From Amoebophrya sp. A120 (Eukaryota > Protista > Dinoflagellata), in NCBI GenBank assembly GCA_905178155.1, contig CAJINV010000002.1:2105216-2169215 (forward strand): a DNA stretch of 64,000 nt. Reading direction: 5' to 3'. A program made the position numbers and the translations under genes. The notes below the pieces were generated by a model. It did not search any database and was not told the origin of the DNA. It worked only from the letters and a program-made list of their open reading frames with translations. Positions 36,999 through 64,000 of this stretch are shown here, one piece after another; the first letter of the stretch is position 1; each line of letters begins with the position of its first letter.

Positions 36999-37279
36999 CT
37001 TCCCCGCTGGGAAGCGCCCTCAGTGGCGGAATGGCACTGCGGTGCACTCTGAGCACATGAGCTGCCATCCATTAAAGCGAAAACTTCCTAAATCACCCTT
37101 CCCCGCTGGGAAACGCCCTCAGTGGCGGAATGGCACTGCGGTGCACTCTGAGCACATGAGCTACCATCCATTAGAACGCAACCTTCCTAAATCACCCTTC
37201 CCCGCTGGGAAGCGCCCTCAATGGCGGAATGGCACTGCGGTGCACTCTGAGCACATGAGCTACCATTCATTAGAACGCG
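36999..37279. repeat. Three-copy tandem repeat, 99-bp period
   Basis: CTTCCCCGCTGGGAA.CGCCCTCA.TGGCGGAATGGCACTGCGGTGCACTCTGAGCACATGAGCT starts at 36999, 37098 and 37197. Confidence 0.95.
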
Positions 37280-37688
37280 AGAACGATGTGAATCCATCAC
37301 AAAGCAAACTATCCAGCGAGACCTGCGGACTACGTCCGCGCTGGCTCCTTCCCCGACCCCACTCAGAGGGGTGGAAGACCAACAACTCCAGGCATTAGCT
37401 TCTAGGGATCTGCCAGCCCATATACAAAAACGGACGGGGGGAAACTCCCTCCAGTCACTCCACGAAAAGGCTCTACCAGGGTAGATGTGTCATTAATTTA
37501 TACGAAACAAACTTATTCCTTCGCTCTTGAATTGTCTTGTTGAAACTAAAATTGAAATTTGTCATGCTGCAAAGCAGATTCGCATCAAATCACGGGGGCA
37601 AGTTTGAATTTGTAAGTGCTACTTCATCTGTACATTAAAAGTATTGCAAAGTACTGCAACTGCTACTCTACTACCATAAAAAAATCGG

Positions 37689-40600
37689 CTACTCGCAGCA
37701 CCCCCCTTGATCAACTGGCTTCGGCTTCGGGCGCGGTTTGGGGGAGGCCACCGGCTGAGGTTGCGCAGCCGGGTTTGCTGGTTGAGCTTGTTGGGCGGGT
37801 GTGGTCTGTAGCACGATTTTTGTAGTCGTGGGCGGGTAGTTGTACGCAGCAGCCTGCAGCTGTGGCTGCGTCGTCGAAGGTTGTCTGTAGTACACGCCGG
37901 TTCCAGGTGGACGAGATGGCTGCTGCTGTAGTGGCATGGGCTGCAGCTGTGAAGATCCGGGTGGAACAGGAGCTCCTACTCCGGCGGGGTGCGAACCCAA
38001 ACTACCACCTCCTGCTTGTCGTGGTCCTACTCCGCCCGGGTACGGGTTGTACGGAGATGAAACTCGTCCTTGAGGTTGGAGTTGTTGTCCTATTGCAGCT
38101 CGTCCCGGTTGCGAATAAACGCCTGAGACTCGGCGCTGTGGCGGAGCGCCTGCGGCTGGTCTTCCACTTGCCGCGCCAGGACGCGAAGATCATATCCAGT
38201 GCAAACATGTCCTCTAGTGCGGTCCGCGTTTTGCTTTTGGTTTCGTATGAAGTAGTTCTTTGCAGTCAGCAACCGCATTCTGTTTCTGTTCTGAGCGGCG
38301 ATTCTACTTACTCATACAAGGATTTGAATTTCTTATGATTGAAGGCAAAACGAATTTCCAGACACAGACACGTTTCCAATGCATATGACGATACGCGTCG
38401 CGTGGTGCCCCTCCACTTTTTCCTTTTCCTCCATTTCCTTTCTGTGCTGGTGGTGCTACTCGATGGCCACTGGGACGAGGTGCAGGTGGTGGTCCTACAA
38501 CACGTTGCGGATCGGAAAGATGTTGATGTGGTACTTGGACACCAGGTGCTAACTGGTAGTCGTCGAGACCGAGACCGGGAGCAGGTTCTCCTGCTACAGC
38601 TCCTCCAGCAGTTTGAGCACCTTCTTGCAGAACGACAGGTCCTACTCCTAGTCGAGGTGGTTGCTGACCGATAATACCGTGATCTTCTTGGTCAACATGA
38701 ACATCTCCTGCTCCAGCAGGGAGCCGCGGCCCAAGAGCCGCCCCAAGCGAAGATCCTAGGCGTCCCTGTTGCTGTTCTTCTTTTCGCGCGTCGAGAATAT
38801 TATTATCGACGTAAGGTCGTAATCCTGGTTCCTCTTGTTCCCGAGGATCTTGCTGGACAACGGGGGCTGCTGGTCGTGCTCCTCCTTCCGGAAGTTGAGG
38901 AACTCCGCCAGCGGCTAGGCTACTTTCAGGCTGCTTTCCTCGGTCGAGGTCGCTGGTGCTGCTTCCTTTGCGACCGGGAACAGCGGCAACCCCAAATATG
39001 AAAGCGAAAAACGCACGCACTGATATCTTCCCTGGTTCTTCTACTTGTCATTGTTGCCTGTCACTATTCGTTCGTGTATGTTTCGTGTTTGGTGTGGTCC
39101 TTGCGTCAGCACGATGTGGGGCGCTGCAGAAACTACGAGCGTATTGCTATATCCGTGTCCTAGTAGTCCGCGTGATGTTCGTCCAGCTACACTACGGCAA
39201 GTAGTTGCCGTGGCATCACGAAAATCAAACATCGATATCTTACCACCATAAGTAACAACTGCAACTGAATCATAAGAATGCAGCTACGTGACTTGTCAAC
39301 CTCACCAGGTGCTTTTTACCAATATCTCAACGTCAACAACAACACTGCGATGCAGAAAAGAAAGAGGCCATAGAAGATTTCCTCAAGATTGTTGCCGCAC
39401 TTTTCGTTTTCATAATATGGGCTGCTGCGACCTTGCCGACCGCGGCCCGAAATGGTGCCGGCCGATGATGCTGATCCGGACCTGACCCTTGCACCGAGGC
39501 CGCCGCGGCCAAATCATCATCCCTGCGCCCCGTCTGAACTGGTCCCGTACTGCCCTCAGCAGGGCCAGAATCCGCCGCAGCGACACTACCTGCTGCTAAG
39601 GGACGCTCCTGGTGCTGTGCAGGACCTACCATCGGTTTGGGAGGTCGTGTAGATATTTGCGGAGGATGAAGACCGGCTTCTGCTCCTCCCGCGCCCCCAC
39701 CTTGCGGAGGGAGGAGCTGAAGACCCGCTTCTGCTCCTCCCGCGCCCCCACCTGGCGCATCGGTGCGGACACGGGCAGGAGCGAGGGCGGATGGATCTTG
39801 GTGAAGATGTTGATCCAGCGATTGCGCCGGTAGAAAATCGGCTGGCGCTTGCGGAAGCATGTCGGGCTCGGGGGGTCCTGGTCTACTGGTCACAGCAGCT
39901 GCGCCCCCGGCCGTTGCGGTGGAGGAGACACCAGGCGGGGCACCTCCGGCTGGCTCCAAGATACTGCCGGCGACGCTGCTGCCCCCACCTGCAGCAGCAC
40001 CACCAGCAGCTCCGGGCTCAAGAGGGGCGTCAAAACTGTCACTGGTGACGGCGGCCGGCGGCGCGGGGGATGTTGACGCAGAACTCGTGGTCGGGATGGT
40101 CTGGGACTGGGTCCCGGCCGCTGCTAGAGCTGCTGCTGGTTCGCCTGCGGGCCCACCAGAACTTCCTCCAGCCCCGTTCACGTCCTCCGCCTGGAGGCTC
40201 GGGAGCCGCTGCTCGTCGGCGCCCGGGGGGTCAGCGTTCTTGCGAGCTGGGAGTGGCGCAGGGTCGCTAGTCTTCAGCGCGGTGCAGTCCTGCTTTTCCA
40301 ACCAATTAATCGCGTTGTTGAACTTGGGCTTGTCGGGTCTCTCCAGCTGCAGCTGTGCCAGTTCCACCCGCAACCAAAACCCACCCTCCTTTTTCTCCGT
40401 TAGTTCCCGTGCTGCACTGTGTAAGGGAGGCTTGGCTTCAGGATTGGGCCGCTTGTCTCTTTCAGCGGCCCACTCTCGTTCAATTTCGGCCGGATCCCCT
40501 AACGCGAGTGCGGACTTTTCAATCGCGGCAATGTGGATGCGTATATGTGACTGCATTTTCTCTTTTAAACCATTATTTGTTTCCAGGTGATACCGGCTTT

Positions 40601-43600: not shown

Positions 43601-46600
43601 TGCTGCATACGAAGCCTTCCGCTGAACATGGAGGGGGGATTTTTTGATCTAATATTTTCGGACAAAGTTTCGTATTCGGCGGGAGTCATCATAAGTTTGC
43701 CTTCCCTTTCCTCCTTCCTGTCGGCTTTGGCTCCCCATTTCGTGTAGTCCCACCAATAGTTTCCTTTCCCGTTCCGCTGCTGCGGCTTCCCCATTCATGC
43801 ATTGCAAAAGCATCGCACTAGTAAGTCTTCCATGAGTCTGCACATGACATACACATAGCTAAACCTACCCAAAATGAAAATAAAAGGAAGGAGTGTCGTT
43901 TGAAGAAGCTGAAGCGGTAGCCACTTTAATCCTGGCAAACTGGCGCTAGAGCGGATTTAGTCCCTGGGAACCACAACAGCTGGACTCTGTGCCGGTGCCC
44001 ATAGGTGGGTCCCGATCGAACACCTCTTTTACAGGTCACACAGAGCCGCAACTGCTGACTTCCTCTTCCGCTTAGCTACACGAGTAGACGTTCCTGGGCT
44101 GCTAGATGCGGCAGGTCTGCTTCACCATCCAATCCCGCAAGCCAGGTAGAGTTCCGGTGTGGCTTTGATGGGTTTAAGGCAACAAGCTCGGTAAGCCTAT
44201 AAACCTTTCAGAGCGTCGTATAAATATGCCTTTTTTATTGTGCCACGTTCGAAGTTCTTCGTGGCGAATCTTCAGGTATCAAAAATGTTCTGAGAGAACA
44301 AGACTTTGTATACGGTATTGCAACTCCAGCAACCTGCGTGTAATACTACTACGATACTTTTACACAGCATATCGTCTTGTCTTTGGGTATTGACAAATGT
44401 GCACCCCCCACATCGGGATAGAGCCTCTCGTCATGGAGCATGGCAAGGTTCCATATCAGATCCCAGCCAAAATTCCAATGTAGCGGTTCATCGCTCCACA
44501 ACGGCACCCACTCTCCAGTGTTCTCATCAACGTCCGGAGCATCGTGTGCACGTGGGACACGTCGAACCTGTCCCGATTTTAGCGTCCCTGCGTTTCGAAG
44601 GGTCTTCGGAAGAGTTTTCGTCAGAAGCTCTACTGCGTCGCTCGCGCATGAATAATCGTCTCTGAGCTTGATGTGGCCCTCAAGCTCTTTGACGAGGTCC
44701 TCCAGAACTGATTTTTTTGCTTCAACCCGCGAGTGCGTGTCTTCAGGATCAGGCTCTCCAGGCTCTACACGAAATCCGGGCAAGACTTGCCGCAAGTCAT
44801 GCCCGGCTGCATTGAGAAAAACCCACCCCAGCACCTTATCGCGTTCTCAAGCGTTACATTCTCAAGTGTTACATGGATTTGTAATGCTAAACCGACCGTC
44901 GAAACCACAAACGCACCCATAGGGCATCTTTCCGCAGATGGTCAGGCCACCGGGTCGCGGAGTCAAAATGCAAGAATAGCACAGGTGAGAGGGAGAACCT
45001 TGCGCGTCTTGCATTACAGATTTGGCGCGGATTCTAGTGCTATTTAGTGAGTCCTCCAAAATTTGTCATGCGAAGTAGCTTGATCTTCACCGTGGCGATG
45101 TTCATGTAGTTGTTCCTTCTCCTTGGTTGTTGTTGATAGTGCTTTTGCGTGACAAATCATGTAAACAGTTGAGAACGTAACTTTTGAGAACCCCATACAC
45201 CTTGAAGACTTCTTGCGGCTCCACCAGGTCGTCAACAAGAAATTTTTCGACCTTCGGATTATTCGGATCCGAGGAAGTGAGCCCCGCCATCTCAATCATT
45301 CTCTCAGCGAGAAGGCTCTTCCCGGTACCCGTGTTGCCGAAGGTGATGAAGAGCTTTGGTTTATTGTCGATGCTATTGACATTGTTTACGGCCAGTTGTA
45401 CAAGCAGCTTCTGGTTCTCCTCGTTGGCGTATGGATCTGGAACCCATGACTCCTCTCCGGCCTCCGATATTTTGGTTTCCGATACTCCCCGCCAATCCTC
45501 CTCCGGTGTCCCAATCTGCTGATACTGCATGACCGGAGTCATTTTTTTCCTTTTCATTTTAGGCTCCGTCACCAGTGGCCGCCTGTCTGGTCCTATTGTT
45601 GCGAGGGGTTCTTTCTTTAACTCCGGCGTCGGAAGGAGACAGCCTTCAGCAGCCAACTTTCGAAGCTCTTGCCGGTCCTTCTCGTCCACAACCTCACCTA
45701 CCGGATCTATCACAGAAAAAAAGCGTGGTAGTTTCATCGCGCTGATTCATACATCTGCTGTACTGCTGCACGACCAGTTGTAGCAAAGTAATTTACAGGA
45801 CAACTTTTCGTCCATTTCGTTTGAAATATTCAATTTTGATCTTATTATGCAGCAAGAAGTAACGATGGATATATCTATATTTTCGAAGCATGCCCTTGCC
45901 CCCTTTGCTCTTGCTCTTCTGTCTACTCTGTGCGGCTGCGTCATGACACGTTTCTTTCATGCCGTGAAGGTCCGGACTAGATTCCTGCAGCTGGTGCTTC
46001 GGTTTCTGTCGAAAGAATTCTACGCGATTAACAAAATGCTAATCCTCTGTGATAGGGTTCACTATTGCGTCGTACACGTCTTTTGGTAACGTAGCCCGCC
46101 AGTACGTAGTCGTCTCTTGTTGTAGATCTTTATTGACAATTACCGGAGGAAGTTGTGCGTATTCAGCCCAGGGTTGAGGCGGCGCTACTTTGTCGTCAAG
46201 TGACCTGCTCTGCTTCAGAAGATGCGCTTCCTTCTGCACCAAGGACGCGACGGCCGTTTGGTCCCCGACGCCGACCTGCTCCTCCCCCTCTACTACTCCA
46301 GGCAACAGCCCTGATTCCTGAGACGCACGACCAGGAGGCACCACGCCTCCACTAGCGTCCTCCCGATATCAAATGTAAAAATGTCTGGGTCTGGAAGAAT
46401 CATGCTGCTTTTGCATGACACAGAAGGTATGGCATGGAAGCTCTAGCATCACAGGTTTCGAGAAGCGTTCGCAATGCCGGATCCGCATGACAAATCCCTG
46501 ATTTTGGTGACAGAAAGTGGGCAACTTTTGTTGCCTATGCATGAGAGATTTTTCTGTGTTCTGAAATGCGCATCACAAGTTTCAACCTTCCAGACCCAGA

Positions 46601-49600
46601 CATTTTTGCAAGTGATACCCGAAGTAGAGGAACAACATCGCCACTACCTTCGCTATGGGGCTCTCAAACGTTACACTCTCAACTGTTACATGCTTTGTCA
46701 TGCAAAATGACCATGACCCGCCACACGACCAAGCTGCTTCGCATGATAAATTCTCGGAGGGCTAAATAGCACTGTAATCCGCACCAATAAACCTGTAATG
46801 CAAGACGCGCAAGGTTCTCCCTCTCGCCTGTGCTAATCTTGCATTACAAATTCATGTAACAGTTGAGAAGGTAACCGATTTGAGAACGCCATATTCGCGT
46901 CGCCCTTCTTGTGCAGGAGGAGCAATCGACGCCACGGGCGCGATATGCAAGAAAAAAAGTATGTGAGTGTAAGTCTGTGATGCAGAAAGTCCAAAACTGT
47001 TACACTTGTCATGCTGGGTCTGCGTCATAGGTTACTTTCACAGGTGTTTTCACGTACTGGCTGCGCATGACAGGTTTTCCCTGCAATGCAAAGCGAATTT
47101 GTGATGCTATTTTCCCTACAGAGTTACACTTACACAGTTTTTTTCCTGGATACGCGACCGTAGTGACCTTCGTACCCGCAGCAGCGGCACCACCCACGAC
47201 CTCTTCGAGAAGTGCAACAGCCGCCGAAGTTGTTGCACTAGAAGTGCTGGCGCCTAGATCTTCTTGTATCCTGTGGAAAAACATCCCCAGCACCCCAGAG
47301 CCGTCGTGCAGTTTTTTTTTGGAACGGTTTGGAATTTTTGCATCTACAGGAACACTTGTTGCAATGCCGGTCCTCATGAGGAGCATTTTTGGAAGTCGTG
47401 TTTTGGCATTTGCAATGCTGTAAGCAGGTGGCTTCTTGCTTGTTCTTTGGATCTCCTTGCTAAACTTCACTAGCATACAGAGAGAATAAACTTGTCATGC
47501 GTAGTTACTCTGAAAACCCCTTTTGGATGTATCTATAAGGCAAAATTCCCATCTTGACTCTAGGGTGTCGTGGGCCTCGTAGATTTACGCAGCATATCTT
47601 GACGCGGAGCATGATCTTCCACCGCATGATCTTGTGCAGCGGGAGGCGCTTCTGCAGCAGTGGTAGCACCCGTCGCTGCGAGACCTTCTCCGTCGCCGCC
47701 CTGTTCGGCTTCGGCAGCACCAGTACTAGTAGCACTTCTTTTATCCTGCTCTTCCGCGAAGGAAGCGGCGGTCATCTCGGTGGGAAAGCTCTCCGCCGCG
47801 CTGCCTTCACGACGATCTCCCGGGACCGCTCCATCCACCAGGTCGTTGTGGTTGTTTTTTTCATCTACTTGAAGATCCGCTTTTTCTCCTGCTTGATGCC
47901 CATGCTTCATTGTCATCGGGAGGGGAAGCTTGATGTAGTTTAAGTTCTTGTTTTCATCTTCTACTTTATCGTTGTTCGACATGGCAGCAGGCGATGTTGT
48001 TCTAGTTGTAGTACTACCCAGTTGCGCCGGATCTTTTTGTTCTTCAACCACACCAGAAACGACTTCCGCGGGCTGTTGCTCAACCGAGCCTCGTTCTCCT
48101 CCTGGGCCCATATTGGTGCTGTTCTTGTCTACTGGTCCCCCTGAAGATCCACTCAACATGAGCTCGCCGCCAAAATTCGCAACCTGGTCCTTTTCCGGGA
48201 GCACAACTCCGGGTAGTTGCACGAACGCAGCGGAAGCAGCTCCTGCTCCACCACCGCTCGCAGCGGTACAACCCTCGGACAGCTGCTGGTGCCCCTCGCC
48301 TTCGGGGCACGGCTGCTTCAGTGCCCTCTGCTCGGTGTTCCCGGCGGGGCTCGGGTCGTGCTGCTGCCCAGAGTTGTGCGCGGACCCTTGTTCCGAGCCG
48401 CGGCTGCGAAGGTCATCTAGTTGTGCGAGCGATTGCGAGGCAGTTTTCTTTTCGTTGGGCGAAGGCGCAGGAAGAACAACCTTCTGCTGTCCACGAACTG
48501 GTTCTTCATCTTCGTCCACAGCAGTTTTGACATTGTCTTTCTCCGGCGCTGCTGGTGCTGGCACTGAATTCAAGAAACTCTCCGCATAATTTTCCGCCAC
48601 TTCATCTTCTCCATAATTTTTGCTCCTTCGCCGTGCGGAGGTAGTTCCTTCGCTACTTCCACTTGCTGCACCTCCTCCCACCTCTGAAGCAGGAGGAGCA
48701 ACAGCAACCTTATCTCCGCTTTTTCGTAACGCTGCAGCTGCCTCACTGTTCATTTGATCACCGCGACCGGATGAGGAAAACTTAGCCAACTCACCGACAG
48801 GAGCACTGCCCTGTTGTTCTACTGGATCTACTTCTCTGGGCCGTCGCGCTCCTTGGGGTCCGGAAGAGACCTGCGCTGTTGACGTTGCGGGAGCAGGAGC
48901 GTCGTCGAGCAGCTCACTGTCGCCTTCCGCAGCCGTCTCCGTGGCCGCGGCCCCTGCTCCAGCGGCCGGGGGCTGCACAGGTCGTGGATCATCATGAAGT
49001 GGCAGATCGTGACTATTTTCCACTGTGGACGTCACCGTGGGTGTAGTTGATGTACTAGCTGCATCTTCTGGATGAAGAAGGTGGCTTGATGTTCCTGTTC
49101 CAAAATTTGGATTTCCATTTCGTTGTTTCAAGTTCTCACCCTGTTGATTTTCAAGAAAAGCTTCAACAGCGTCTTCCTTTCCAGCCGAAGGAGGTGCTGT
49201 AGTTGTACGTGCGTCCTCAGAACCGCCCGCAGCGAGAGTAGCTTCTTCTGCACTGGCGCTACGACCTACTTTGGGAGTAGTGGATGCAGAAGTCGTGGTT
49301 TCTGCCATGCTGACGGCTTGATCGTGCAGCTGCGTCGTCGTGCCACTTCGGCTTGCAGTCTTCACAACTACGGCCGCAGGAGAGAGAGCCGGCGGATCTA
49401 CCACCTCCGGTCGACTTTCTTGTGCGGTTTTTGAAGGCAGTACAACTTCTGGCCCCTGCTGGTGCTGGTTCTGCGCAGGAGGGTTTGTCGCAGTAGTATC
49501 GTCCACTGTTTTCTCCTGCAAAAATTGAAATGCGGTACTAGAAGAAGAAGGTGTTGTTGTCAACGCCTCCTCTTCTTGCTGCACCTGTGAAGCAGGAGGC

Positions 49601-50664
49601 ACTGAAGATTTTTCTTCAGTGGCTGAGCTCTGCGCATCAAAATGAGTCCTCGAGGAAGAAATGGAAGAAGATGATGTTGGCACGATCAACGTCGGAACTG
49701 TTTTCATCTCATCATCAGCTTGTAGTTTGTCAGGGGCGGTAAGTGGACGAGGGGAAGCTGGTCCCGCTGCTCCTGCTTCTTCCGCTGGTGCGGGTAGAAC
49801 AACATCTGCAGGTGGTCCCGCCATTTTTCTTGCTCCACCTCCATCTTCAGGGCGACGTTTTTCTACTTCCAGTACACTTGTTGTCTGCTCCACCGAGCTG
49901 GAAGCTGCTCTTCCTCGTCCACCGGGCCCGGTTATAACTCCATCGGATTTTTGGTCCAATCGCTGAGCTTCAGCTTCTGCTCCTCCTGCGTTTGGGTGTC
50001 GCGCGACGTGTTCCGCGGTGGAAGATGTTGAAGTTGTTCTTGCACTATTGGTCTGTTCACCTGCATCTTCGAGGAAGTCGTTCCTTGCTCCGTCTTCAGA
50101 GGCCGCTCCCCCCGCCGTGTTTTGATTTTCCTCTACCTTCTTCCGCGGCGCCAGGAACTGGGTCGAGGAGGACATCCGGACATTCTTCAGCCTCTTCAAC
50201 TGGGAGAACATTCCTTCGAAAATGCCCGACAAAAAACTGCTCACCGGTTGCAGCAAGTTGTAGGCGCCGGAATAAAATCCATGTTGACCCAGCATATTAT
50301 GGGGGTTCCCTGCTGCGGCCGCCGCGGCCCTTCTCGCTTCCTCCTCCGCCTGTTTTTGTGCCGCCGCAGAGGACGGTACGATCATGACCTCGTCCGGCCA
50401 TCCGGCCCGGTCGATGTCCACAACTCGGACCGCACCGACGAAGAGGAAAGTACTTCTGGGGTGGTCTCGTGCTTCTTCCAGGTTCTTGGCATCATGTGGT
50501 CGTCCTGGTCGCAGGTGAATATTTGTGGGCGGCGTCGTGTCGTGTGGGAAAAGTAGCAGCACGACACATAATTGCAACCCTACCCGCAAGGACGACGAGG
50601 ACAAATGCGATAGATGTTGAAAGCACGGCAACAACATCTTTGCGGCTCTACTTGTCGTGTTCAT
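37689..50664 (-). CDS. P-loop kinase-like multidomain protein, paralogue B; exon structure at 41150-43560 unresolved
   Basis: Hydrophobic N-terminus, then MSSSTQFLAPR and a long low-complexity region; KLFITFGNTGTGKSLLAERMI at about 45300-45360; LVDDLVEPQ; FTNPF..GPRLP..ADAWIIRN at about 41510-41590; CWEKYCGFE; probably ends GGCCE* at 37689. Confidence 0.65.
38193..38385. mobile_element. Decayed introner, family A
   Basis: TATCCAGTGCAAACATGTC / TTCCAGACACAGACACGTTTCCAATGCATA; the +5 rule joins AYRH|SRPG, in frame through to the stop codon. Confidence 0.7.
39024..39372. mobile_element. Decayed introner-like intron
   Basis: TAT...ATA termini; the +5 rule joins ILRKSS|RAFFAF in frame; TIR not recognisable. 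Confidence 0.4.
41990..42320. repeat. Cluster of short palindromic CAAATTTG(CT) repeats inside a large intron or insert
   Basis: AAATTTGC-like units recur about every 11-12 nt at 41990-42080 and again at 42190-42320. Confidence 0.75.
43796..44371. mobile_element. Enlarged, decayed introner, family B
   Basis: CATGCATTGCAAAAGCATCGCACTAGTA / TACTACTACGATACTTTTACACAGCATA; 576 bp versus the typical 150; join KDKT|RKPQQ is in frame. Confidence 0.7.
44837..45197. mobile_element. Introner, family E
   Basis: TATCGCGTTCTCAAGCGTTACATTCTCAA / TTGAGAACGTAACTTTTGAGAACCCCATA; perfect TSD CACCT; join FKV|LGWVF. Confidence 0.95.
46367..46617. mobile_element. Introner, family A
   Basis: TATCAAATGTAAAAATGTCTGGGTCTGGAAG / CTTCCAGACCCAGACATTTTTGCAAGTGATA; perfect TSD CCCGA. 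Confidence 0.95.
46654..46893. mobile_element. Introner, family E (reverse orientation)
   Basis: Family E TIRs; perfect TSD TTCGC; internal TGCAAGACGCGCAAGG is the reverse complement of the core in 16084-16318 and 44837-45197. Confidence 0.95.
46944..47152. mobile_element. Introner, family H-like
   Basis: TATGCAAGAAAAAAAGTATGTGAGTGTAAGTCTGT / ACAGAGTTACACTTACACAGTTTTTTTCCTGGATA; perfect TSD CGCGA. Confidence 0.93.
47267..47596. mobile_element. Introner, family C
   Basis: TATCCTGTGGAAAAACATCCCC.. / ..TTTACGCAGCATA; perfect TSD TCTTG; join PRQ|EDLG. Confidence 0.9.
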
Positions 50665-53478
50665 CCTCGGTGCCGATGGTCTTTTTTAGTGGTGTTCAAG
50701 AACACCGGGCGGGCTGCTTCATCTCCGCTTGGTCCGTCATCGCTGCAAATTCACAAGCGGCAGCTCTACTGGGTCGTGATCGTCGTCGTGAAGATGATGG
50801 TGCGTCGGTTAAAGTACTTACTTATTTTCTTCCGGAGCCACCTCTCGTTCTCCAACCCCTGCCAGCCTTAGAGTTCGGAATTCACTGCGACCTCAAACAA
50901 CAAGAACAATGTGAATAATTAATCGGGGGACATTCAGGGTGGAACTGATACTGAACAACAGATCATGAAAAGCAAAACAAGCTACATGTGAAAATAACAG
51001 GTGGAGCTCCGACAGCTACTGGGGTAAAGACTGCATTTATCATTGTAGATGAAGGATTTCGTACTGGCCTTCGCCTCGTAGCTTACTGATGTCGTACCTG
51101 CATTCTCATTGATGATTAGTTCGAGCGGGGCTCGGCACAACTCCCTCCTCCGACGCGCGGCAGGAATAGCCTGCCCTGATACCCTATTGGTAACGTCGTT
51201 GACTGAGGCCAGGTTTTTTCGTCATTCTTATTTCAAGTTTCTGTTACAACAAAATCCGATTATAGCATGGGGATACATCTCTTCAAGAAGCTGCTTTGTT
51301 CCACAGCCTCTGGAACAAAGCGGGTCAGTTGCCGTTTATACTTTTTTTTTCGTATCTAGGGGGTACTACTAGGTCGTGACAAAGGGTGCGGGTGGCGTCT
51401 GTAGTATCACAGTGGTAGTTGACATGGGATGATTCAATTATTGATTTGCAATGAAATCAAAAGTCTAGACGAGCCGCGGCAGCAGAAGTAATGTAGTGAT
51501 TAAACGCAGTGTCAGTTACACTTCCATGATCTGCGAGTGGTGTACGACTAGTAGCAGATGCACGACATCTTCACGACCTCACGCCTACTATCTTCTCCGA
51601 AGACAGCGCAGAGGTGCTGGACGAGAGGGCGACGCGATCAGAAGTACATGTTTGTACAACTTGTGTCGTGCCAAAAATTTACTGCTGCTAGTAGAGCTAC
51701 CAGCCGCTGCTACTGCTAGACCGACGAAGCGGTTACCTGATGGCAGGGACAGAAGAAGGATGGACGAGCAACAGATGATAAAAAAGTAAGAGCGCAAAAT
51801 GACCGACACGAGTAGTTCACGAAGCTTCCATCCTATGTTTCAGTATCATGCTCGCAAACATGCTAGAAAATCAAAATTCAGACGGAAAATAAAGAACGAC
51901 TGCGTTACCGAAGAGGAAGAGGACTTCACTCGCTACACCAAATCTATTCAGACCGAACTGCACCTGACCTGCAACGACGGACTACGACTTCTAGTGAGGA
52001 AATGCTTTATTTGTGACAGTAGTTAGACGTACGCATGGAGCTCTTGCATTAAGATGTTAGTCTTTCTCTTGCTTATTATATTCTTTGGCATGATTGAGTA
52101 AGTAGTCCTCTCGGCGCATGATCCACTGTCGGCGGAATAATTGGCAGGTGGATTTTGTAAGCACGGCCGACGTTGCACCTGACCTTCTAGGATCTATTCA
52201 TTTCAGCTGATCATGCGCTCTACTTAAATCGGGTTCTTCTTCTATGCTGATAAACGAAAATAGAGATGGAACTAGTAAACTGCTACTGCAAAGATGAACT
52301 AACAAACGAAAGAACCCTGTAAACAATGATCTGCAGATATACTTTTTTCTATGCTTGATGTGTTGTCTCTCAAATCTTTCTTCGTTCTGGTGGGATGGCG
52401 AGCACTAGCGCTACAACTCTACTTTACGGCAAGAATCCTTTCGTCGGTCTGATCTAGACATACAATAAAGTATTTTTAGACCCGGATCTTCTTGTCAGCT
52501 GCCTTTGTGCAGCACTAGCATTCGAAATAAATACTTGTTGCGCATCCACACCTCTACTCGGCGGCATAGAAATTCAAGTATGCGGGAATAAACGAAAAAG
52601 TTGTACTGAAATGAATCACACCCGAGAAAAAAAGTTGTAAAAGGGAATTGAATACAGACGAAATTTGATGTCACGCTACACCTTCGAGGGCGAAAAACTG
52701 ATTTTTGTGCGTTGCTTGAATCGATGCAAAACAGAATGAGAATGGATTGATGAATGTTGAAAGCTCAAACCGCGGCGGGCAAAAAAGAAAAACTCTGAAA
52801 AAGTCATGAAACAGAAATGGTTTGGAATTTACTTTATTTTACTATGCTTCAGGTAATGTTGTTCTGTTGCCAATTCTACGTATATCAAACTTCAAATTGA
52901 TGATGATGTGCTTCAAATGAAAAATTGAATTTGTGCTTTTGCGTCTGAAAAAAATGAAAAAGGCGTGAAAAAAAAACTACAACTAGTGAAAAAAAAACGA
53001 ATCTTGTTTGTTTGTTTGTTAGTGATGGAGTCGTGGTTTCCGTGTGAAGGGTTTACCTTCCTCTCAAGATGCTAGTGCTAGTTCAAGAAAGATACAAGGT
53101 GGGTACAGCAGCTGTGGCCTCGTAAGCCTGAGAAAAAGAAAAAGTTAAGATTAGAGTTGATGAAAAGTTAAGAGGTCGGTGCTAAAAGTTAAAAGTCTAC
53201 TGAAAAGTTGGGAAGGATACAAAGCAGTGCTGTTCTAAAAAGTTGAAGTGTAGTCCTGTTTTTCGTTGCTTCTACATGAAAAAAGTTACGAAATCGGATG
53301 GGTGGGTGCTATCAAATTCTCCTGATTCGAAATATACCGCGTAAAAATCCATAGAGGGACAAATTGAAATTAGTGCTTTGACCTTTGCCAATGGCACCTC
53401 TGATGTGGATGCAATTTAACGTGCTGGTAGTACCGCCGGCAGTCTTCGGACATTCCATGTGCCTGAGCCTGTGCTTGC

Positions 53479-56400
53479 TCACGCCACTTCGTTTTTTTTC
53501 TCCTCCTGCACAACTTCATCTTCTAGGGGGGACGAAGGTGAAGCTGTGCTGCTTGGTGTCGGCACGATGGACGAGTGCTTGTCGCGTCTGGATAACTCTT
53601 CCGGTGCAGAAGTAGCCAAGAGCTCGTCGTCATGTTCTGCCGTGGATGAGGATGGTGCTGCGGCGGCCTGCGCTTCCTTCCGCTGGGAAAAGCTTCTCCC
53701 GACGATACCGACCCCGTCTAGTCCCCTGGGCGAAGTCGGGCCTCGTGGTGTTCCAAGGACGTGTCAAAGGCAAAAGTGTCGCAGCCGTAGCAGCAGCTTC
53801 CAGCATCACAACTCGGCATGGGGATGGCCCATGTCTTCATCCCAATGCAACATGGGTGGCTAGTCACTCATAGCCATACATTCCTTTACTACATCAATAT
53901 TGGATGAAGACGGTGAACGCCGGGGGAGGTCATTACTTATTTGGAATGCAGGAACGAAGCACTAACACATGATCATGCGAAGCTATGATTACATGCTCAT
54001 TCCGGAAACGGATCGACTGCTTTAACAACTGCGACAGCACTTTTGCGAGACATAGATCGCCAGAACCCGCCGTCTCCGTCATACCCCCCGGAGGAAATGA
54101 CAATGCAGCAGGACCGCGTCGAGGGCTGGAGGAGGCCACCGGTGGCTCACCGGGCACTGAAGCGGATGCTTGTGGAACCTGTAGTAGTATTTTTATCGTG
54201 TTGCACCTGTCCTACGTCTGATGTACAACTTTGTCCAAGAACGCTGTTGTCATCTAAGCACCACAACTCTGATCGCACTCTATGCCACTAAATATTCTGG
54301 ACATGAAAACGTTCCAGATTTGCCTATTGGTGTGTTCCGCTAGTCGGGTAAGATGCAGCTCGCTATTCCTAATATAATCATTCTTTACGGGACTTATATC
54401 CGGTACTGGCACAACCGACGAAACAAGACAAGTCACGCGTCGACACTAGAAGAACGAGAAGATGAAAAGAAATGCAAATGGTAACATGAAATATTGAAGA
54501 ACAATAAATCTGCAATTTTGATGTTGTAAGCATACAGCTATTGGCACCTGCTCCACTTCCAGGTCTTGTTGATGAGGAGTTTGTTCTCTCCCGTGATGTA
54601 ACTGATCTATTTGCGGTTGCCCGGATCGAGGGTCCACTCCTGCGGCTTCTTGCACTTCCACCTGTTGTGTAAAAACAATGTCACATGGGCCAAAGCTTCC
54701 GCATGGAAACATTTCGTCTTGCTACAACTGAGCAAAACAAAACGTGTCGGTTTCCATGTAGACATGTTGTTTTTCAACTAGCCACTGCCTTCTGGTACCT
54801 AGTATTCAGCACCTTTCGCGCCCCAAGAGTGAGAGAGCATGCAAATAAGCGTTGTGAAATCTCAGACGGAAGTTTAACAATCTCGCACTTTAGCTGAAAG
54901 CAGCAAACTGCAAGGTTTTTTCTAATGGTGCACGCATCCTGCGAGGCATGGGTGTTGGATGAAGAAAGTTGTTGAGGCGCCGCTTATCTATTTATACTCT
55001 ATGTATCACCGTCAAAAGAGAGTACCCTTGGCTCCTGGGAGTGGAAATTCGCCAAGCCCAGCTGGAGTTGGGCCATCTGAGTTGTTTATGCACGAAAGAC
55101 ATGTTGTCCCCGTCCCGAAATGCAAGATTTCTAGTCAGATGTCCGCGCAAACATCTGTTGCAACAGACCAAAACGCTTATGACCCAGTTTCTTCGTACTG
55201 AACAATCTGACTATGCCTGGCCACTGACCGATGAACGTCAGGATGTCATGTTGTGATTCTCCATCCTGCTGCCCGTGCCTTCGCGGGCACACAGTTGCAG
55301 TGAAAGCAAGATTTTTGGAGAGCTGATGTCGCAGCCTAAATGTAAATCTCCATCTCGATCATCTTCTTGCATGAACAGAAATGCTTCAGACGGTGACATC
55401 ACGATCTTGTTTGCTTGTGATACCCCGAGAGTGTCGGTTTGTTCCACCGCTTCCAACGGCGGCAATGTCGGAAGCTTCACCATGTCACTATCCTTAGTAA
55501 AAAAATCAAGGCCATTACCTGTATCTAGTAGATCTACTGCTTCATACGGCATGCACACACGTACTTGAACTTGCTCGCGCAGAGAAGATTTCGCACATGC
55601 AACTGAAATCTGATCATTCAATCATCGGTGCCCCGCGAAAATGACGGGCGTCTCATTCGTTTTTTTGCGGACAAACTTTCGACTTGTTTGTCAAAGTGCT
55701 CCCTTTGTGTTCGGCAAGAGCCACGCATCCTCACGCAAACTCGCTGCCTTGGAGGCTGCCAGCAAGGCGGCAACTTCGCGCGAGACACAAACAGCAGCTC
55801 TTTGAGCGAAACGCAATCTGGAGCTTGTGTGCGTGAACAAGCATAGAGCATATGAATAGATGTGTCACAAGAACATTCTTTAAAAGAATGAGTGTCTGCC
55901 TGCGTTTTTCTCCAGAGCTTAATTTACACTGCAAGTTCTTCCAGCAACGGCGAACAACACATACTTGCTCCTCGAGAATTCGCTTGTTGAGGCCTGGATT
56001 TTACTTACGCGGGATACGTCGTGGCGAAATGCGAGACCCACTCCAGAACTTGGGTCATTTCAGTCAAAAGACCCTGAAGCTTTTCACCCCCATTTCCCTC
56101 CTGTAGCGTTTCTATTCGGCGTGTTCCTGCCTCTAGATCATACGCTCCAGGCACGATCTGCTGATACACCACGTTTGTAACTGCATTGTTCCACCGGCTT
56201 TGGTACTCTTGAACCGTCGCGCGCAGACCACTAAACTGGTCTTCCAACACTGCTGGGTTTGCGGCTTGCGTATGCGAGTGCAACACCCACCCTCGCCTCC
56301 CTCATCAAGTTTCATTTGGAAATCAAAATCATGGAAAGAATGCAAAATATAAAATCCAGATCCACTCAAATTCAAGAACATTCGCTTCTTTATGTGCATT

Positions 56401-59400
56401 GCCTGCAGGACAGCGACAGCACCGGAACCCAAACAATTTCTTTTAGTACGCAAGTCCGTGTACGGTTTTGCATTTGCCGTGCGGGCGCCTTCTGTGACAT
56501 TGTTTGCGTTCCTGCTCCTGCCCTAGCACTGAGGGGAGGAGGGCCATGGTGCACTGTCATATTGCATCTCAAATTTGCAGTAGCTTGCTGCGCAGGTCTC
56601 TTTCTTGCCTTCCTGCTTGTGTCCCTCGCAATACTTAATTCCGTCGTGTTGTAGCCGTTTTAGTTGTTCTTGTTTCGTCTCCTCCACCTCCGGCAGGTCG
56701 CTACCTGCACCTGGGCTAATATTGCGGATGGACGACGTTTGCCCACTGGCAGTCACGCAATAGTAGCGATGGGCAAAATCGAGCTTATCATCCACCTGCT
56801 TGTACATGAGTGGCGTCTGGATCGTGCCGCGTGTGGAAAACAAGCTCCGTTTGTTGCAATACGCGTGCCCTTTTTTCACCAAATCGCTTGCGTCTGGGGC
56901 AAGCGCTAAGAACTGCCTGGCTTCGACGTGCATCACCAGCTGACTGGCGTCTATGTGTGACACTACCCGATTCGGATTGTTGTTGAACAAGACAAAATGC
57001 TGAATTGTGACAGCCGGTTTTATTTCTTGCTCCAAGTTTTTTTCCGTCTCTCGTCCCCCTTGCTCTCTTGACACAATCGCCCCGCTACCGCCAGGCCCTG
57101 GCATTATCTCTTTCGGTTTTGGTACTTCTTGCATCCTCTCCCACGCTTCTACGATGTGGTTCCGCAACACCCAGGAGTCCGTCTGCCACCCTTTTTTCGG
57201 CAGCCGCGGCCCGGTTTCCGCGGTCCACGGATTAGTGAACCCCCGCACCTTTGCCAGCGACCGATCGACATTGCGCTGCCACAAAAGCACCTTCTCGACA
57301 AGGTTGGCCCCAATCCAAATGTCGTATATGTCGTTCAGCGCAAACCGCGTGGAGTCGCGTTCGAAGCCGGATCTGGCTTTTTTGCACTCCGCCTGCGTCA
57401 TTGGTTTCAGGCCACTTGACACGCATCGCGTCACATCGTCAAGCCAATCGGCGTATCCCAATGGGCTTAGCGTATTCTCCCCAAGAACGTGGTACTCTTC
57501 TAGTAGACGTTGCGCCTGTGCGTAGTTATTCAGTTCTTCCACATCGAGACGCGGGGGCCTAGCGTTCTCGAAAACGCCCCATACAGTTTTAGGAATGTTC
57601 GTCATTTTCTCCTGTGCCGCCATAGGCAACGAACGAAGGCCGCGCTTATCCGGGACAAAAATAATTGTATGTGTAGTGTACAATATACAAACAATGGAGC
57701 ATTCGAATTTCGAGTGCTCCATTGTTTGGAGAAGCATCACAATTTTTTTGTTTGGCAAGATGTTCTGCACCGCTAGTACGTGAAATCATCCATCATGAAA
57801 AGGTGTGGGACGATGCACAAAATGATGAGTGCAGCCGGTTTTCTCGTCTTGCACATTCTGTGTTACAAACAACCGGCACAAAGACTAACTACACGACAGT
57901 TTTTTTGTTGCGTAGCACTTCCGAGAAAACCAGTACGCGAGTTCCATTCCGTCCTGCATCTTCTTCGGTATCAAGTACAAGCATGTCTGCCGGGTCTCGA
58001 AGATTGGAACAATTTTTGTAATGCTGAACTCCGATTATACAACTCGCCTTGCACTCTGAGCATTTATTATGCATGTGGTCGTGGTGGAAAACCACTGCTT
58101 GGTTTTTGCGATTCATGAGGCACGTCGCGCACTACAGAGCCCTTCAAAACGTTGTTCGGCTTGGCTGACTACTACGCTCAGCTTGTTGTCGGTTGGTCAT
58201 GCACTACGTGCACTTAATAAACGTCTTTCGAGACCCGGAAAATTTCTTCAAAGTCGATACCCAATGTCATTTTCAACTTCTCGCCAAAAGCGTTTCCTGG
58301 TGCTTCCACAAGTTTTTTTATCCGAAGCTGCGACGTCGCATCATCTTGCTGAGCGTCCTTGTCTTGAGCACCAGAAGCGATTACAAAAACGCGTGCCAGA
58401 TTCGTAAGCCGCTCTTCTGATTTTGCTTGTACCTCTTCGACCTGCTGAGGGTCCTCGACGTCCTTGAGTTTTTCCAGATCGGTTACCAGCTCCTCTGCCA
58501 TCTCTTGTAGGTCATCTGTTCGGGTGAATTTACTTCCCCTTCCCGTAATTGTCTTCAGAGCAGGAAAAGCGTATTTTTCGAGATACGACACTTTTCCCTT
58601 CTCGCTCCGCAGCAAAACCGGACATTGTTCCGTGGCCCCCGCAGGTGGCACGATTGCCTCCTTTATCGTTTTGAAAAAAACTAGCATATTCCTTCATGGA
58701 CATGGAGGAGCCATGCAGAAGAGGCAGAAAGGTGATGCAGAAATCGCACTTCCGTAAAATACGAATTTTTCTACATCTTTGTCTTTATTGTGCTGTTTGG
58801 ATTTTTTCAATAAAGGTCATGGGAAATATGCTAGTGCTTCTCTGTGTAGTATCCAAACTTCCGCCCTCATGAGGGTTCTTCGGGGTTTTCGTTTTTGTAA
58901 GCTCGTCGAAGATGCGTGCGGTCAGCAGAGGATCTTGAGCGCGTAGTTGATTTTGATACAACTCACTGCTGCGCTTGATAATTTCGTCTTCATCGGCCGG
59001 CGGAAGAGAGGAATCGTGCTGGAGATCAAACTCATTTTTCGCGCGTTTATACAGCTCATCACTACGCTTGATGATTGTGTCGATGTCCATTCCGGCCGAG
59101 TTGAGAAACAACCACGCTTATACATATTCAAATATGTCATCTGGGTCGTGAAGCGTTCAAATAACTTGTGAAAAATTTGATGCTCACACCTCTGGACCAG
59201 ACAAAAATCTGTGTTGCATGACCAGTGCCACAAGTTGTTTCCCGCTTCTCAATACGCTAAGAGCGAGGATGCCAGGCGGAGCAGACAAGAAGTTGTAGAA
59301 GAAGCGTTCGCTAACACGCCTGTCATGCACTGTGTGCATTCCAGCCCATCTACCTCTAAATCTACTCTTCGAGAACCCGAGGACATATTTCTTGAATTTG

Positions 59401-61882
59401 CAATTGATAACGCAAGAACCTTGAACATTTCCTGGGGCTCGATCAGGTCATCTACCAGAAACCTGTGAACGTGATCTTTATCGTCATCTGCCGTCGGGGG
59501 GGCGGGATCGAGGCCCGCCATTTTGATCATGTTGTCTGCCAGGCTGCTCCGGTATGCGAGGGAAAAGTTGTTGATGTAGTTGCTGCAGCAAGCACACAAG
59601 GACCATGACTAAACCCCTGCATGCATCATGCACACACATGTGCCAACATGTGACAATGTACTCAGTGTCGTCCGTGCCGCGACTTGGAAAAATAAAGAGG
59701 AGAGGGGACTACTAGAAAGACGGGGGTCACAACGTAGCTTAGACCAGAATGTTTGTACAAGTAGCAAAACATCATGAATTGTCGATGATGTGCGTAGAGA
59801 CCCTTGGCCCGGCTGCAGCAGGGCAACACTTCAAAAAAGAATTTGCTCGGATACTTTTCCCGTTCCAGTGTTCCCGAACGTGATGAAGAGTTTCTGGCGA
59901 CCTGCGAACGTGTTCCCAACGTCCTCCGGCCGGCTGTTCGTGAACGGGTACTGGGCGCGGTTGCCCCGAGGCTCGTAAATGTGTTGTCTCCTCAAATTCT
60001 TCTCCCCCTGCTTCCAATGCTCTACAGCCCCCGTGTCTGTCACACGCGTCACACAAGGCTGGAAAAATTCGTTCGCACCTTCGCCTTCCAATTGCAGCAT
60101 CGCGTCCGTGTCAAAGTTCTTCGGCAGCCACAGGTGGGTGAGCAGAAACGGCCCCACTTGCGTAGCAGTTCCGCCTGGATTCATTGCTGCTGCCATCGTG
60201 CTGGTGCCCTGCTTCTGCAAAAATCCGATCGCCGTCGTGCCGGGTTGTTCTTGCAAAGGCGCCTGATTGATGTTGTCAGCACCGACGTCGTCTAGGGTGC
60301 GGTTGAGAGAGTAAAGCATTGCAGGTCCGCCTGCTCGTGGAGAAAGAACATCATGAAAATCTTTTGGTTGCGAGAATGAGAAATCGTGTTTTTCATGTTG
60401 TTGTTCCACCGCGAGAAGTTGCAGTGCCACGGCTGCTTGTCCGTCTGCTGACTCGCTCCCTGTGTCGTCCTGCAAAAGGGTCGTGCGGCCACTCGGCGTG
60501 ATCGCAGAGGACGCGGTGGATGCAGTAACTTCTGCGTCTTCATCTTCCAACGCGCTTGAAGAAGAAAATGATGTTGTAGAAGTGGTCCTTGCATTTCGGT
60601 TTCCATAATTTGCCCCCGTACTATCACTGTCCTCTCGGTCAACATCAACGTCTTGAAAATCGTAATCATTTTCATTCGACGGGGTCAGTGCCTGCTGCTC
60701 CGCGGCATTTGTTGCTTCCTCGCCGGAGAAATTCAGAGCATCGGACGCCAGAACATCTACTTGCTCACCCTCAGCCTCTTCGTTCGACGACGCTCTTGTA
60801 CCCTGGTCGTGCTCTGCGCGAGAAGGATCGGAAGATGAATCTTCGGAAGTAGACCCCTCCACCTGCTGGTCGAGATTTTCGCTTTTCAGCTGCGGCGCTT
60901 CCGCTTCTTGCGAATCTTCACCGTCCTCAGTTGTGTCGTCATCTTCATCGTCGTCTTCGTCACGAGTGAACGTCTCGTCATGGAGATTGTCGTGATGTGG
61001 TTCGGGTTCCTGAGCAAGAGGTTCTTCTTGGCGTTCTCGCTCAGGCTCCTTGCTCACCTCGACGCCGTGGGCAGGTTTCTTGCCGTTCTTTGGAGTTCCC
61101 CGTGGCGCCAGAAACTGCTTCGACGAAGACATCGTGAAGTTGCGGGAAAAAAACCCGTCGAACCACGAAGACACGTAGGAAGTCGAAGTGGCAGTAGAAG
61201 TTGAAGGTGTAGCACTTGATGTTGTACTAGTCGTCCGTGGACCTCCATTCTGCTGCGAACCGCTATCTTGAACGTCGACCACCACGGGAGGAGTTTTTGC
61301 GGAGCTCATCTTAGTAGACTGGGTGCCGACGTGACCTTCTTCTTCATCTTGAGCAACCTTGCTGTCGAGCAGCTTGTAGGCGAAAATGCCGGGGGTCGTG
61401 AGAGTAGAAAAATCTTCGCCAAAGCAGGTCAAGAGAAGCAGGAGGCGGGAGAAGCACAAAAGTTGTACTCCTTTCGGAAATAAAACCGCGGACCACGTCG
61501 AAGCTGCGATCGGACCACGAGCAGGCCCGGCACGACAGGTCGTGGTGCTGCAGAAACTGAAAGACCGGGCGGAATGACAAAATGCATCCATGTCATTTCC
61601 TCGCTTGACTTTGTGCCGCTTGCAGAAGTTGTTCTCGTTCTGCTGTTGACTGAGGAATCGCGCCACAGCAGACCACCACGACGCAGCACCAGCGGCGACT
61701 GGTGCAGGGGGGTCGTTGGATTTAGTCACGCCGGTCCGGTTCTTCTTTTGCTGGCCTCCCTCCACTTCTTCCATGATCGGAAGGGTGAGACGCCGTTGCA
61801 GCTTCTGCGCCGAGGACGTCTGCATTAACATCGTCTTTTTTAAGTTTTGACGTTTAGGTTTACGCAAATTATGCTCGTCCAC
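53479..61882 (-). CDS. P-loop kinase-like multidomain protein, paralogue C; 3' exons only partly resolved
   Basis: Hydrophobic segment, then MSSSKQFLAPR; KLFITFGNTGTGK (about 59855-59893) continues as SSLADNMIKMAG (about 59548); LVDDLIEPQ; FTNPW..GPRLP..TDSWVLRN; CAASYCKFE. Putative last exon ends EEKKNEVA* at 53479. Confidence 0.6.
59119..59409. mobile_element. Decayed introner, family A
   Basis: TATACATATTCAAATATGTCATCTGGGT / ACCCGAGGACATATTT..GCAATTGATA; flanks ACGCT/ACGCA; join FKVLA|WLFLNS. Confidence 0.75.
59553..59853. mobile_element. Decayed introner-like intron splitting the Walker A motif
   Basis: TATGCGAG...CTCGGATA termini; removal of 306 nt joins GTGK to SSLAD in frame. Confidence 0.6.
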
Positions 61883-63606
61883 GATTCTGCGATGCTACGA
61901 CTCCAGCACCTCCTGCTGTTCCTTCTGTCTTGCAGTGGACTTCGAGTTCTTCAAGTTCGAGTTCTGCTTGATGCGGTTGTCCCGTTTTCAAAATGACTTA
62001 TTGGGTGCACCTCTATTGGTTTTCGATGGTGGAGGGGGTACTTCGCTTAGTGGTCTTGAGAAATTCAAATTGTTGTATGATTGATGAGAGAATGCAGCAA
62101 ATGCGGGTTTCGCAAATGCAATCGCAGTAGTTGTACACAATTAACACGACACGCAATCGTTGAAAATGTGACAGTGCCAAACCTGCGGGAAATAAAAATC
62201 AGCATGTGCATTTCGAAAATAAAGATAAAGAACTTGTTTAACGTCACATAATGATGCTGTGGTTTGTTGTTCACCAGCTGCACGATTTTCTTCATTTTGC
62301 AATCTCACACCTGAGGCAGGAACGACAACGAAATACCCTCGCCGGGCGGCTGACGACCGAAATCTACTACATCAATGCAAGACTACCAAGATGTCCTGTA
62401 CGATGAAGCACGAAAAGTAAACCGAAGGGTGAGAAGTGTCGTGTACGACATGAAATCACGAAGAGGCAAAAAACCGATGTGTGGAAAGAAACAAGTGTGT
62501 AACTATTTGTCGCACCGACGAAACAAGTCTTCTTGACGACAGACTCACCGAGCAGCAGTAGGTGGACGAGTTCTAAATCTCAACGCACGATGGATACATG
62601 ATAAAGTTCAACCTTTTTTTGTCGGACAACTTCTGCCGCGCACGAACCGAATCAAGCGGAGGAAGGGTAACAGAAGAATTGTATTGCCACCGAGATAGAG
62701 ATGCACGATAAAAATGCAAGCCTCACTGAAACTTGTGCCCAACCGAATCGCGCGGAGTACAAAAGGCGTTTGTAAAAATAACACACTAGTGCTTGTTGTA
62801 CGAGGAACCGACAACATGGTGAAAAAAGCCACACACAGGTCGAGCCATTCTGCTGTAATGCAGTGTAGGCAAATGCATAAAATAAAAATTGATATTTGTT
62901 GTCAAAATTACCCTGTTCATTCTTCTGCTTGGAAAAATCGAAGAAATCAGAAGAGTTGTAGATGTGATAGCTTTAGTGGAAACGCAAGTAGTTGTAAGAA
63001 GAAATCGTAGTAAAGATCTCCGAAAAAGAAACCAAATGACTCTGCACGTCCCGAAGAAAATTTTCTTACCCAAATAAGCTAGGCCGAAAGATAAAGACTG
63101 CAACCGGACTAAAACCATACGAATAGGGGAAATACAGCAGAAGTTTAGAGAAATTCAAATTCTGTAGCCGAATCATACCCCATCTCATTTTTCCATTTAA
63201 CACAGCAAAAAACGAAATAAAGAACAGCACTGGAGCGATTTTGCTCCCTGTTGTATCAGCATTGATATCAAGCAAGAGAAGTGCAACACAAGGGAGATGG
63301 AGAATATCATACGTAAATCAATTGTAGGCGATATTTTTTTGGATATTAAAACTACAAGAAATAAAGGGCGAAAAGTCGAGCCAAGATAAAGATTTCATCT
63401 CACTGTGCATATTACGAAAACCTGTTCCGTAGAATATCGTCAATTTGGAAAAGAGCTGAGGAGCCATACTTGACAAAAAGAACGAGCCGCGATAAAGCTA
63501 GTAGAAAAAGAAATTGAAATTGTTTGGAAAAAAACCTGAAGTAACTGTAACCGTCTGAGAAGTATATAGAGTTTAGGTCTACTCATCAAGTTCAAGATCA
63601 ATCTGA

Positions 63607-63885
63607 TATCCTGAGTAAAAACGTACCCACACCAGAGTTGTCATGCGACTTTGCCATGACAGGAACATTTGTGATGCGCAACCCCATGACAGGCATTTTC
63701 AATCGTGTTTGGGAACTTGTAATGCTGTAAACAGGATTAGCAGATCGATTTGTGATGCGGCTTTCCTTGCTACCTTGCACTACCTTACGGACTGAAACTT
63801 GTCATGCGTGACTCACAAAACTCCTAGGTTTGTGTTGCAAAATCCCCATCCTGACTCTGGTGTGGGTACGTTTTTACTCAGGATA
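63607..63885. mobile_element. Young introner, family C, with perfect 32-bp TIRs; host exon not identified
   Basis: TATCCTGAGTAAAAACGTACCCACACCAGAGT / ACTCTGGTGTGGGTACGTTTTTACTCAGGATA; perfect TSD TCTGA. Confidence 0.95.
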
Positions 63886-64000
63886 TCTGAATCTCATGCA
63901 TTAGACCGTTGAAAAATTCGAATGAAACTGAAAGAAACGAAAATCATGTGACGAGTAAGCAGGTTGTGATATTTTTAGATTCCAAAATGCGGGGCTGTTC

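Follow-up and report, generated by a model that had tools for sequence, protein, structure and literature searches.

The element at positions 63607-63885 of the 64,000-nucleotide stretch of Amoebophrya sp. A120 DNA analysed here (the window) raises the question of what reads the short motif TGT[C/G/A]ATGC that recurs in its interior, and whether it is read as DNA or as RNA. The initial annotation had offered two answers, phased binding sites for a transposase-type protein or an intron-identity signal taking the place of splice sites. The element is a young family-H copy of 279 nt with TAT...ATA ends, flanked by the 5-bp target-site duplication TCTGA (63602-63606 and 63886-63890, plus strand) and bounded by perfect terminal inverted repeats of 32 nt (63607-63638 on the plus strand, 63854-63885 on the minus strand). 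Its interior holds three motif doublets on the plus strand: cores 63639 and 63670 with a gap of 31 nt (63639-63677), cores 63718 and 63751 with a gap of 33 nt (63718-63758), and a strict core at 63800 followed by the variant core TGTGTTGC at 63831, again with a gap of 31 nt (63800-63838); a weak inverted site lies 3' of the first doublet, at 63684-63691. The copy sits in non-coding sequence, upstream of a gene on the minus strand (59834-61894), and it is a putative intron only, since no long reading frame surrounds it (the longest nearby has 122 codons). A family-A element at 211-462 carries five plus-strand sites (252, 283, 316, 336 and 375) and one minus-strand site (422), and lies within a minus-strand frame that is restored on its removal. 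The core positions first listed for these two copies stand as strict sites in 10 of 11 cases; the exception, 63831, is the variant, which is common and is accepted by the motif profile described below.

The window contains 34 TAT...ATA elements with a total of 10,210 bases, 33 of them shorter than 1 kb. All ten long reading frames lie on the minus strand, and excision of the elements together with 5 nt fuses frame fragments; the longest fusion, a host frame of 2194 codons at 6838-16522 (minus strand), appears once 13 elements and one target copy of each are removed. A 2920-nt contig, from a run that is only guessed to be RNA, precisely lacks six motif-bearing elements of this strand (7774-8037, 8135-8389, 8468-8584, 8636-8895, 9677-9972 and 10155-10306, within 7774-10306), with no extra letters in the pieces listed; of the raw RNA runs labelled with the same species, two contributed 1 and 3 reads, too few to be informative, and no read evidence falls within 44001-64000. 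In two cases, 7774-8037 and 8135-8389, the duplications are mismatched and so reveal where the cut falls: the transcript lacks one base or more ahead of TAT and one or more behind ATA, which sets the splice register inside the duplication. Exact target duplications of 5 bp flank 22 of the 33 shorter elements, duplications of 3, 4, 6 or 7 bp at most one of them, and the 6-bp duplication of the IS3EU/GingerRoot type none.

To these were added metagenome contig loci. A triple-motif scan of sequence collections returned 126 loci, of which 29, all with the contig prefix JACKZZ01, hold the same element families at identities of up to 99%. Their source is this organism or a strain very close to it, so that the data set as a whole represents one organism or very close strains and lends no taxonomically independent support. 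The other 97 loci gave no match to window elements, and the 30 that were inspected were all tandem minisatellites, so the scan provides no evidence of the motif in other organisms or viruses; the family-A end pattern was likewise not found in the viral contigs searched. An element finder based on ends and duplication was run on 28 of the 29 JACKZZ01 loci (148,586 bases; L074, contained in L073, was dropped) and yielded 108 elements, after finding 27 elements in the window and 1 in shuffled sequence as a control. Together with the 33 shorter window elements this gives 141 elements in 40 clusters over 212 kb, which are short, non-coding, dispersed and equipped with terminal inverted repeats and a target duplication, as are MITEs. 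The motif and spacing statistics omit the 25 elements that match the scan pattern and rest on the 116 unselected ones. Rfam returned no matches, and one protein search found no relative. A profile of 202 ends has the form TAT + 7 + AAA, with TAT in 99% and A at positions 11-13 in 71-83%. At the boundaries of 126 elements the direct repeat matches at 5/5 positions in 96 and at 4/5 in 24; for the metagenome elements the finder itself partly dictates this figure.

The ends also vary in a manner of their own. In 25 close pairs (interior divergence 0.077), positions 4, 5, 7, 10 and 15 of the terminal inverted repeat differ at 0.20-0.38, and the variants found at end positions 4-15 are a small set common to several families (examples are the window elements at 211, 10161, 11279 and 24390, and L013:3096 and L046:3685). 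The opposite end accounts for only 26 of 105 such differences, and in several family-C copies the interior is inverted relative to the outer 10 nt. This pattern suggests end exchange or flipping of the interior.

The window elements are very likely the published A120 introners. The passages of Farhat et al. 2021 (PMC7789003) that concern A120 describe a signature of TAT + 7 variable + AAA ends with direct repeats of 3-5 nt, and the elements resemble the introners of that study and of Gozashti et al. 2025 (PMC12130899) in their ends, short direct repeats and non-canonical introns; the family lengths given in parts of the latter (252-260, 148, 278-279, 305 and 234 nt) match families found here. 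The internal motif, the doublet spacing and the end-to-site distance are absent from the text and supplements of both papers as far as these were searched, and the motif string has no match in 14 supplementary files of PMC12130899; figures S19-S25 of PMC7789003, which are images, could show the motif. It is also undescribed in the wider literature searched, which included bioRxiv 2020.10.14.339549 and mostly excluded subscription journals and theses. The motif and its doublet are thus apparently an undescribed trait of elements that are themselves known, analogous to the subterminal binding repeats already on record elsewhere.

The enrichment of the motif in these elements is plain. Strict TGT[C/G/A]ATGC occurs 105 times in the window (62 on the plus and 43 on the minus strand), when about 5.9 occurrences are expected from a first-order Markov model. 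These divide into 55 TGTC, 26 TGTA and 24 TGTG with no TGTT, and TGTTATGC has no occurrence in the window. The 34 elements contain 98 of the strict matches and the 7 outside them are about the chance expectation. A profile built from the 116 unselected elements of window and metagenome has the consensus RRAYYTGTVWTGCD and finds 501 sites in them, 20.0 per kb, as against 0.48 in shuffles. The suggestion that intact copies of all families carry the motif holds for young copies, where it occurs 3-7 times each and GCATGACA is present in 10 of 10 hand-labelled families; at least two profile sites are found in 29 of the 33 shorter window elements, and the four that have one or none are old.

The sites are arranged in doublets. 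In 101 unselected elements with a relative (25 clusters), 107 of 227 gaps between adjacent same-strand sites measure 31-33 nt, with the mode at 31 (57 gaps), followed by 32 (29) and 33 (21). When each cluster is represented by one element, 18.4 of 39.1 gaps fall at 30-34 nt, whereas 3000 random placements gave 3.4 on average and never more than 11. The spacing noticed at first is therefore real and far above random placement, whereas the term phased was an overstatement: with 4 gaps at 20-22, 5 at 41-43 and 19 at 51-54 nt, the distances do not form a series of 21, 42 and 52 nt. A comb with a period of 10.5 nt was rejected on this ground, and one preferred distance, not general helical phasing, is what the gaps indicate. 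The doublet is polar, a strict site coming first and a variant second, with A at core position 5 in 107 of 118 first sites and T in 44 of 118 second sites. The length of its spacer changed in 17 of 68 comparisons, as opposed to 53 of 115 for other short intervals (P=0.005), a modest effect when expressed per 100 nt (1.06 vs 1.45). The sequence of the spacer is 0.53 identical within clusters, 0.34 between them and 0.26 after shuffling. Successive 31-nt units are alike at only 0.17-0.43, depending on the cluster, and an origin of the doublet by tandem duplication found no support across families.

Placement relative to the ends is also constrained. The motif is repeated near both ends irrespective of the transcript strand, as subterminal repeats are, and the outermost site points inward at 129 of 202 ends. 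Of these inward sites, 108 keep a distance of 33-46 nt to the tip and form two groups (33-38 and 40-46 nt) separated by about one helical turn. The tip itself was considered as an outward copy of the motif, a weak candidate, with 8% of the 202 ends passing the threshold and 19% scoring above 0, compared with 2% for random interior positions. At the other 73 ends the outermost site faces outward, and sites are also numerous deep inside the element. Both features are unlike simple subterminal arrays and count against a role of the motif in mobility.

The motif is better conserved than its surroundings, as had been supposed. When fixed core positions were compared with the rest of the interior in 71 copies of 7 families, singleton changes amounted to 0.023 in the core and 0.063 in the interior, and shared variants to 0.050 and 0.158, so that cores vary about three times less than the remaining interior bases. 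The substitution evidence consists of singleton and pairwise measures. In nearest-neighbour pairs the core-to-interior ratio of change is 0.32-0.38 when the copies are diverged and 0.56 in the 14 closest pairs, where the difference (9/273 in cores, 82/1388 elsewhere) is not significant (P=0.11). This trend fits a filter that acts through transposing lineages, without proving it, and neutral inheritance of the motif is unlikely. Selection after insertion may operate beside such a filter, since the effect in close pairs is not significant and singleton changes are depleted. Site density drops with distance from any relative (rho 0.55), and an old family-H copy at 47267-47596, with its 5-bp duplication intact, retains 2 profile sites compared with 6 in young copies. 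Four old elements retain at most one site each: 24780-25136, with TAT...ATA ends, has no site (its retention shifts the frame, and paralog homology crosses the junction); 38997-39414 has a single weak site, and its retention would bring in 9 in-frame stops; and 55489-56016 and 56271-56561, the latter an old family-D copy with recognisable ends, have none and shift the frame if retained. These elements were located through their ends, so that end retention is built into the set, and their splicing is deduced from frames and homology.

The motif is rather likely to represent binding sites, on double-stranded DNA, of the machinery that mobilises the introners. This machinery is probably an integrase-type, Ginger/GingerRoot/IS3EU-like transposase, a relationship suggested by the TA..TA ends and the 5-bp duplication. 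The TAT...ATA introners would then be non-autonomous, with an integrase-type DDE transposase supplied in trans, or its cofactor, binding the sites. A strong site followed by a weaker one three B-DNA turns on could accommodate two DNA-binding domains on the same face of the helix, and inward sites 33-46 bp from the tips could position the complex on the element ends. Selection would act only via copies that transpose, which would explain why the motif decays after insertion, and in old copies the intron would presumably still be removed by end pairing. Mu and Tn7 have multiple sites at their transposon ends. The proposal of a transposase-type binding protein agrees with the use of both strands, the fixed doublet, the inward-pointing outermost sites and the conservation; binding itself we infer. 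None of the 22 frames of the window and none of the 52 frames of related loci (74 in total) matches a transposase family in Pfam. If correct, this reading would make the doublet a defined bait for the missing mobilising protein of tens of thousands of A120 introners, with internal negative controls in spacing mutants and in core position 4, which is never T in the 105 strict sites, and a signature for locating autonomous elements. It would also separate two jobs, interior sites serving mobility and ends serving splicing. That a single motif with one fixed doublet recurs in otherwise unrelated families argues for one protein serving all of them.

According to the passages of PMC7789003 devoted to this issue, neither a transposase nor U1 snRNA was found in A120, and a general transposase-mediated mobilisation was rejected on the ground of the missing transposase. 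Supplement 8 of PMC12130899 assigns A120 family 38 the label Ginger and lists TA/TA ends and a duplication of 5 bp for it; according to the main text, however, this family does not have the termini and duplications that Ginger elements should show. The A120 elements share with IS3EU/GingerRoot, as portrayed in parts of PMC10045372, PMC6839031 and PMC12730594, the terminal inverted repeats and the TA..TA termini (TAY..RTA in fungal IS3EU). These elements usually have 6-bp duplications, inverted repeats of >30 to 150 bp and a transposase gene, whereas the elements studied here duplicate 5 bp, carry no gene and behave as introns; the duplication speaks against membership in that group, and the IS3EU/GingerRoot passages mention no internal repeat motif, unlike the introners. 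In the hAT element Herves, transposase binding is reported to depend critically on a short subterminal motif, which is also sufficient for it (PMC3143072). The A120 motif is likewise short, separate from the terminal inverted repeat and present at both ends, and its binding is a prediction; unlike in Herves, the sites fill the whole element of 110-450 nt, are common to families with different inverted repeats and form polar doublets of 31-33 bp. A further likeness is to the non-conventional introns of euglenids and Fritillaria, which in the parts of PMC11282704 consulted are transposon-derived, have non-canonical junctions and bring their ends together by inverted repeats; a repeated internal motif common to these introns is not mentioned there, in contrast to the elements here.

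Other proteins could read the same sites. There is a slim chance that one domesticated protein reads the doublet on DNA, spreads the elements and marks them co-transcriptionally for removal; if true, this would be a DNA-encoded definition of introns replacing U1 and splice sites in Amoebophrya. Similarly unlikely is recognition of the motif, within the gene itself, by a DNA-binding protein of the host that flags the intron as it is transcribed or renders the insertion tolerable; mobility would then be a by-product. The double-strand symmetry and three-turn spacing fit such a protein, A120 has no reported transposase, and the ratio of 0.56 in close pairs would allow cores to be still constrained there; yet the motif is lost from old elements that interrupt frames, and with only 7 of 105 sites outside elements a host protein would be left without evident host targets in the window.

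An RNA-level signal, that is, an intron-identity signal or splicing enhancer substituting for lost splice sites and U1, is improbable. Six motif-bearing elements are skipped in the probable transcript, U1 went undetected and splice dinucleotides are variable in the account of PMC7789003 as far as consulted, and the depletion of singleton changes in the motif would also suit this explanation. So would the orientation of the families, which favour one direction relative to the transcript in 74 of 102 copies (74:28; null 63.5, P=0.002), despite balanced motif strands; this bias is unexplained by a model of mobility sites and counts against a purely DNA-level reading. With transcript direction assigned from frames and a 5-mer classifier (38/38 agreement), the fixed transcript strand expected of an RNA splicing signal was not observed, sites being distributed 216:243 and doublets 49:56 between the strands. 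Family H carries nearly all its sites on a single strand, yet its copies occur in both orientations, 10:5. A role as splice signal is thus unlikely in view of the balanced strands, the two orientations of family H and the four old frame-breaking elements (24780, 38997, 55489 and 56271), apparently spliced with 0-1 sites, and the same results weaken the intron-identity alternative of the initial annotation. Pairing co-variation of the terminal motifs was rejected as well: the terminal cores of the two ends agree in 10 of 38 elements, compared with 9.9 after shuffling.

Mobilisation through RNA is very improbable. In this scheme the reverse transcriptase and integrase of a retroelement would spread the element via its excised RNA hairpin, with the motif acting as an RNA capture or packaging signal, present on both strands so that either orientation could seed copies. 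The integrases of LTR elements also fit a 5-bp duplication and TA..TA ends, judging from a passage of PMC6839031, strand symmetry is predicted here too, and predicted folds place 43% of core bases in pairs with another core. The gap mode of 31 nt, followed by 32 and 33, is nonetheless closer to three turns of B-DNA than of A-RNA, family H is one-stranded but abundant (17 of 141 elements), and an intron cut within the duplication would hardly yield exact TAT ends free of exon remnants. Least probable is that the motif and its spacing were simply inherited, under no selection, from one ancestral element made of a 31-bp tandem unit: spacer identity between clusters slightly exceeds the shuffle and masked interiors show no inter-cluster link except that of an old H copy with H, a BLAST test that is weak because the fragments are short, but the threefold slower change of cores than of neighbouring bases within families already contradicts it, consecutive 31-nt units bear little resemblance, and motif and gap persist while site number, order and strand vary between families.

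Several other features of the window deserve mention. A 1.09-kb element at 722-1815 contains two direct repeats of 332 nt (98.8% identity) and has inserted into a motif site of the family-C introner 673-1913, removal of which still restores the frame. At about 2548-3597 lies an element of about 1.05 kb with terminal inverted repeats, TA-type ends and, at its flanks, 72 nt of near-duplicated coding sequence; it has no motif site and carries an internal repeat, GTATTCTTGA, three times on the plus strand, and it may be a sister family with a binding site of its own. A strongly A-rich stretch of about 6 kb (about 31400-37500) contains tandem repeats of 330 and 100 nt and no frame above 260 codons, gave no Pfam match in the four frames tested, and is probably a decayed large mobile element. 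Paralogous genes of a family that was not recognised occupy 23329-27347, 27360-29959, 44352-45746 and 55241-57785, with introners at differing positions; some of them share a GxTGxGKS stretch, which we take to be P-loop-like. Finally, 19070-22306 is an element-free frame of 1079 codons with a sugar-transporter domain (PF00083) at its end.
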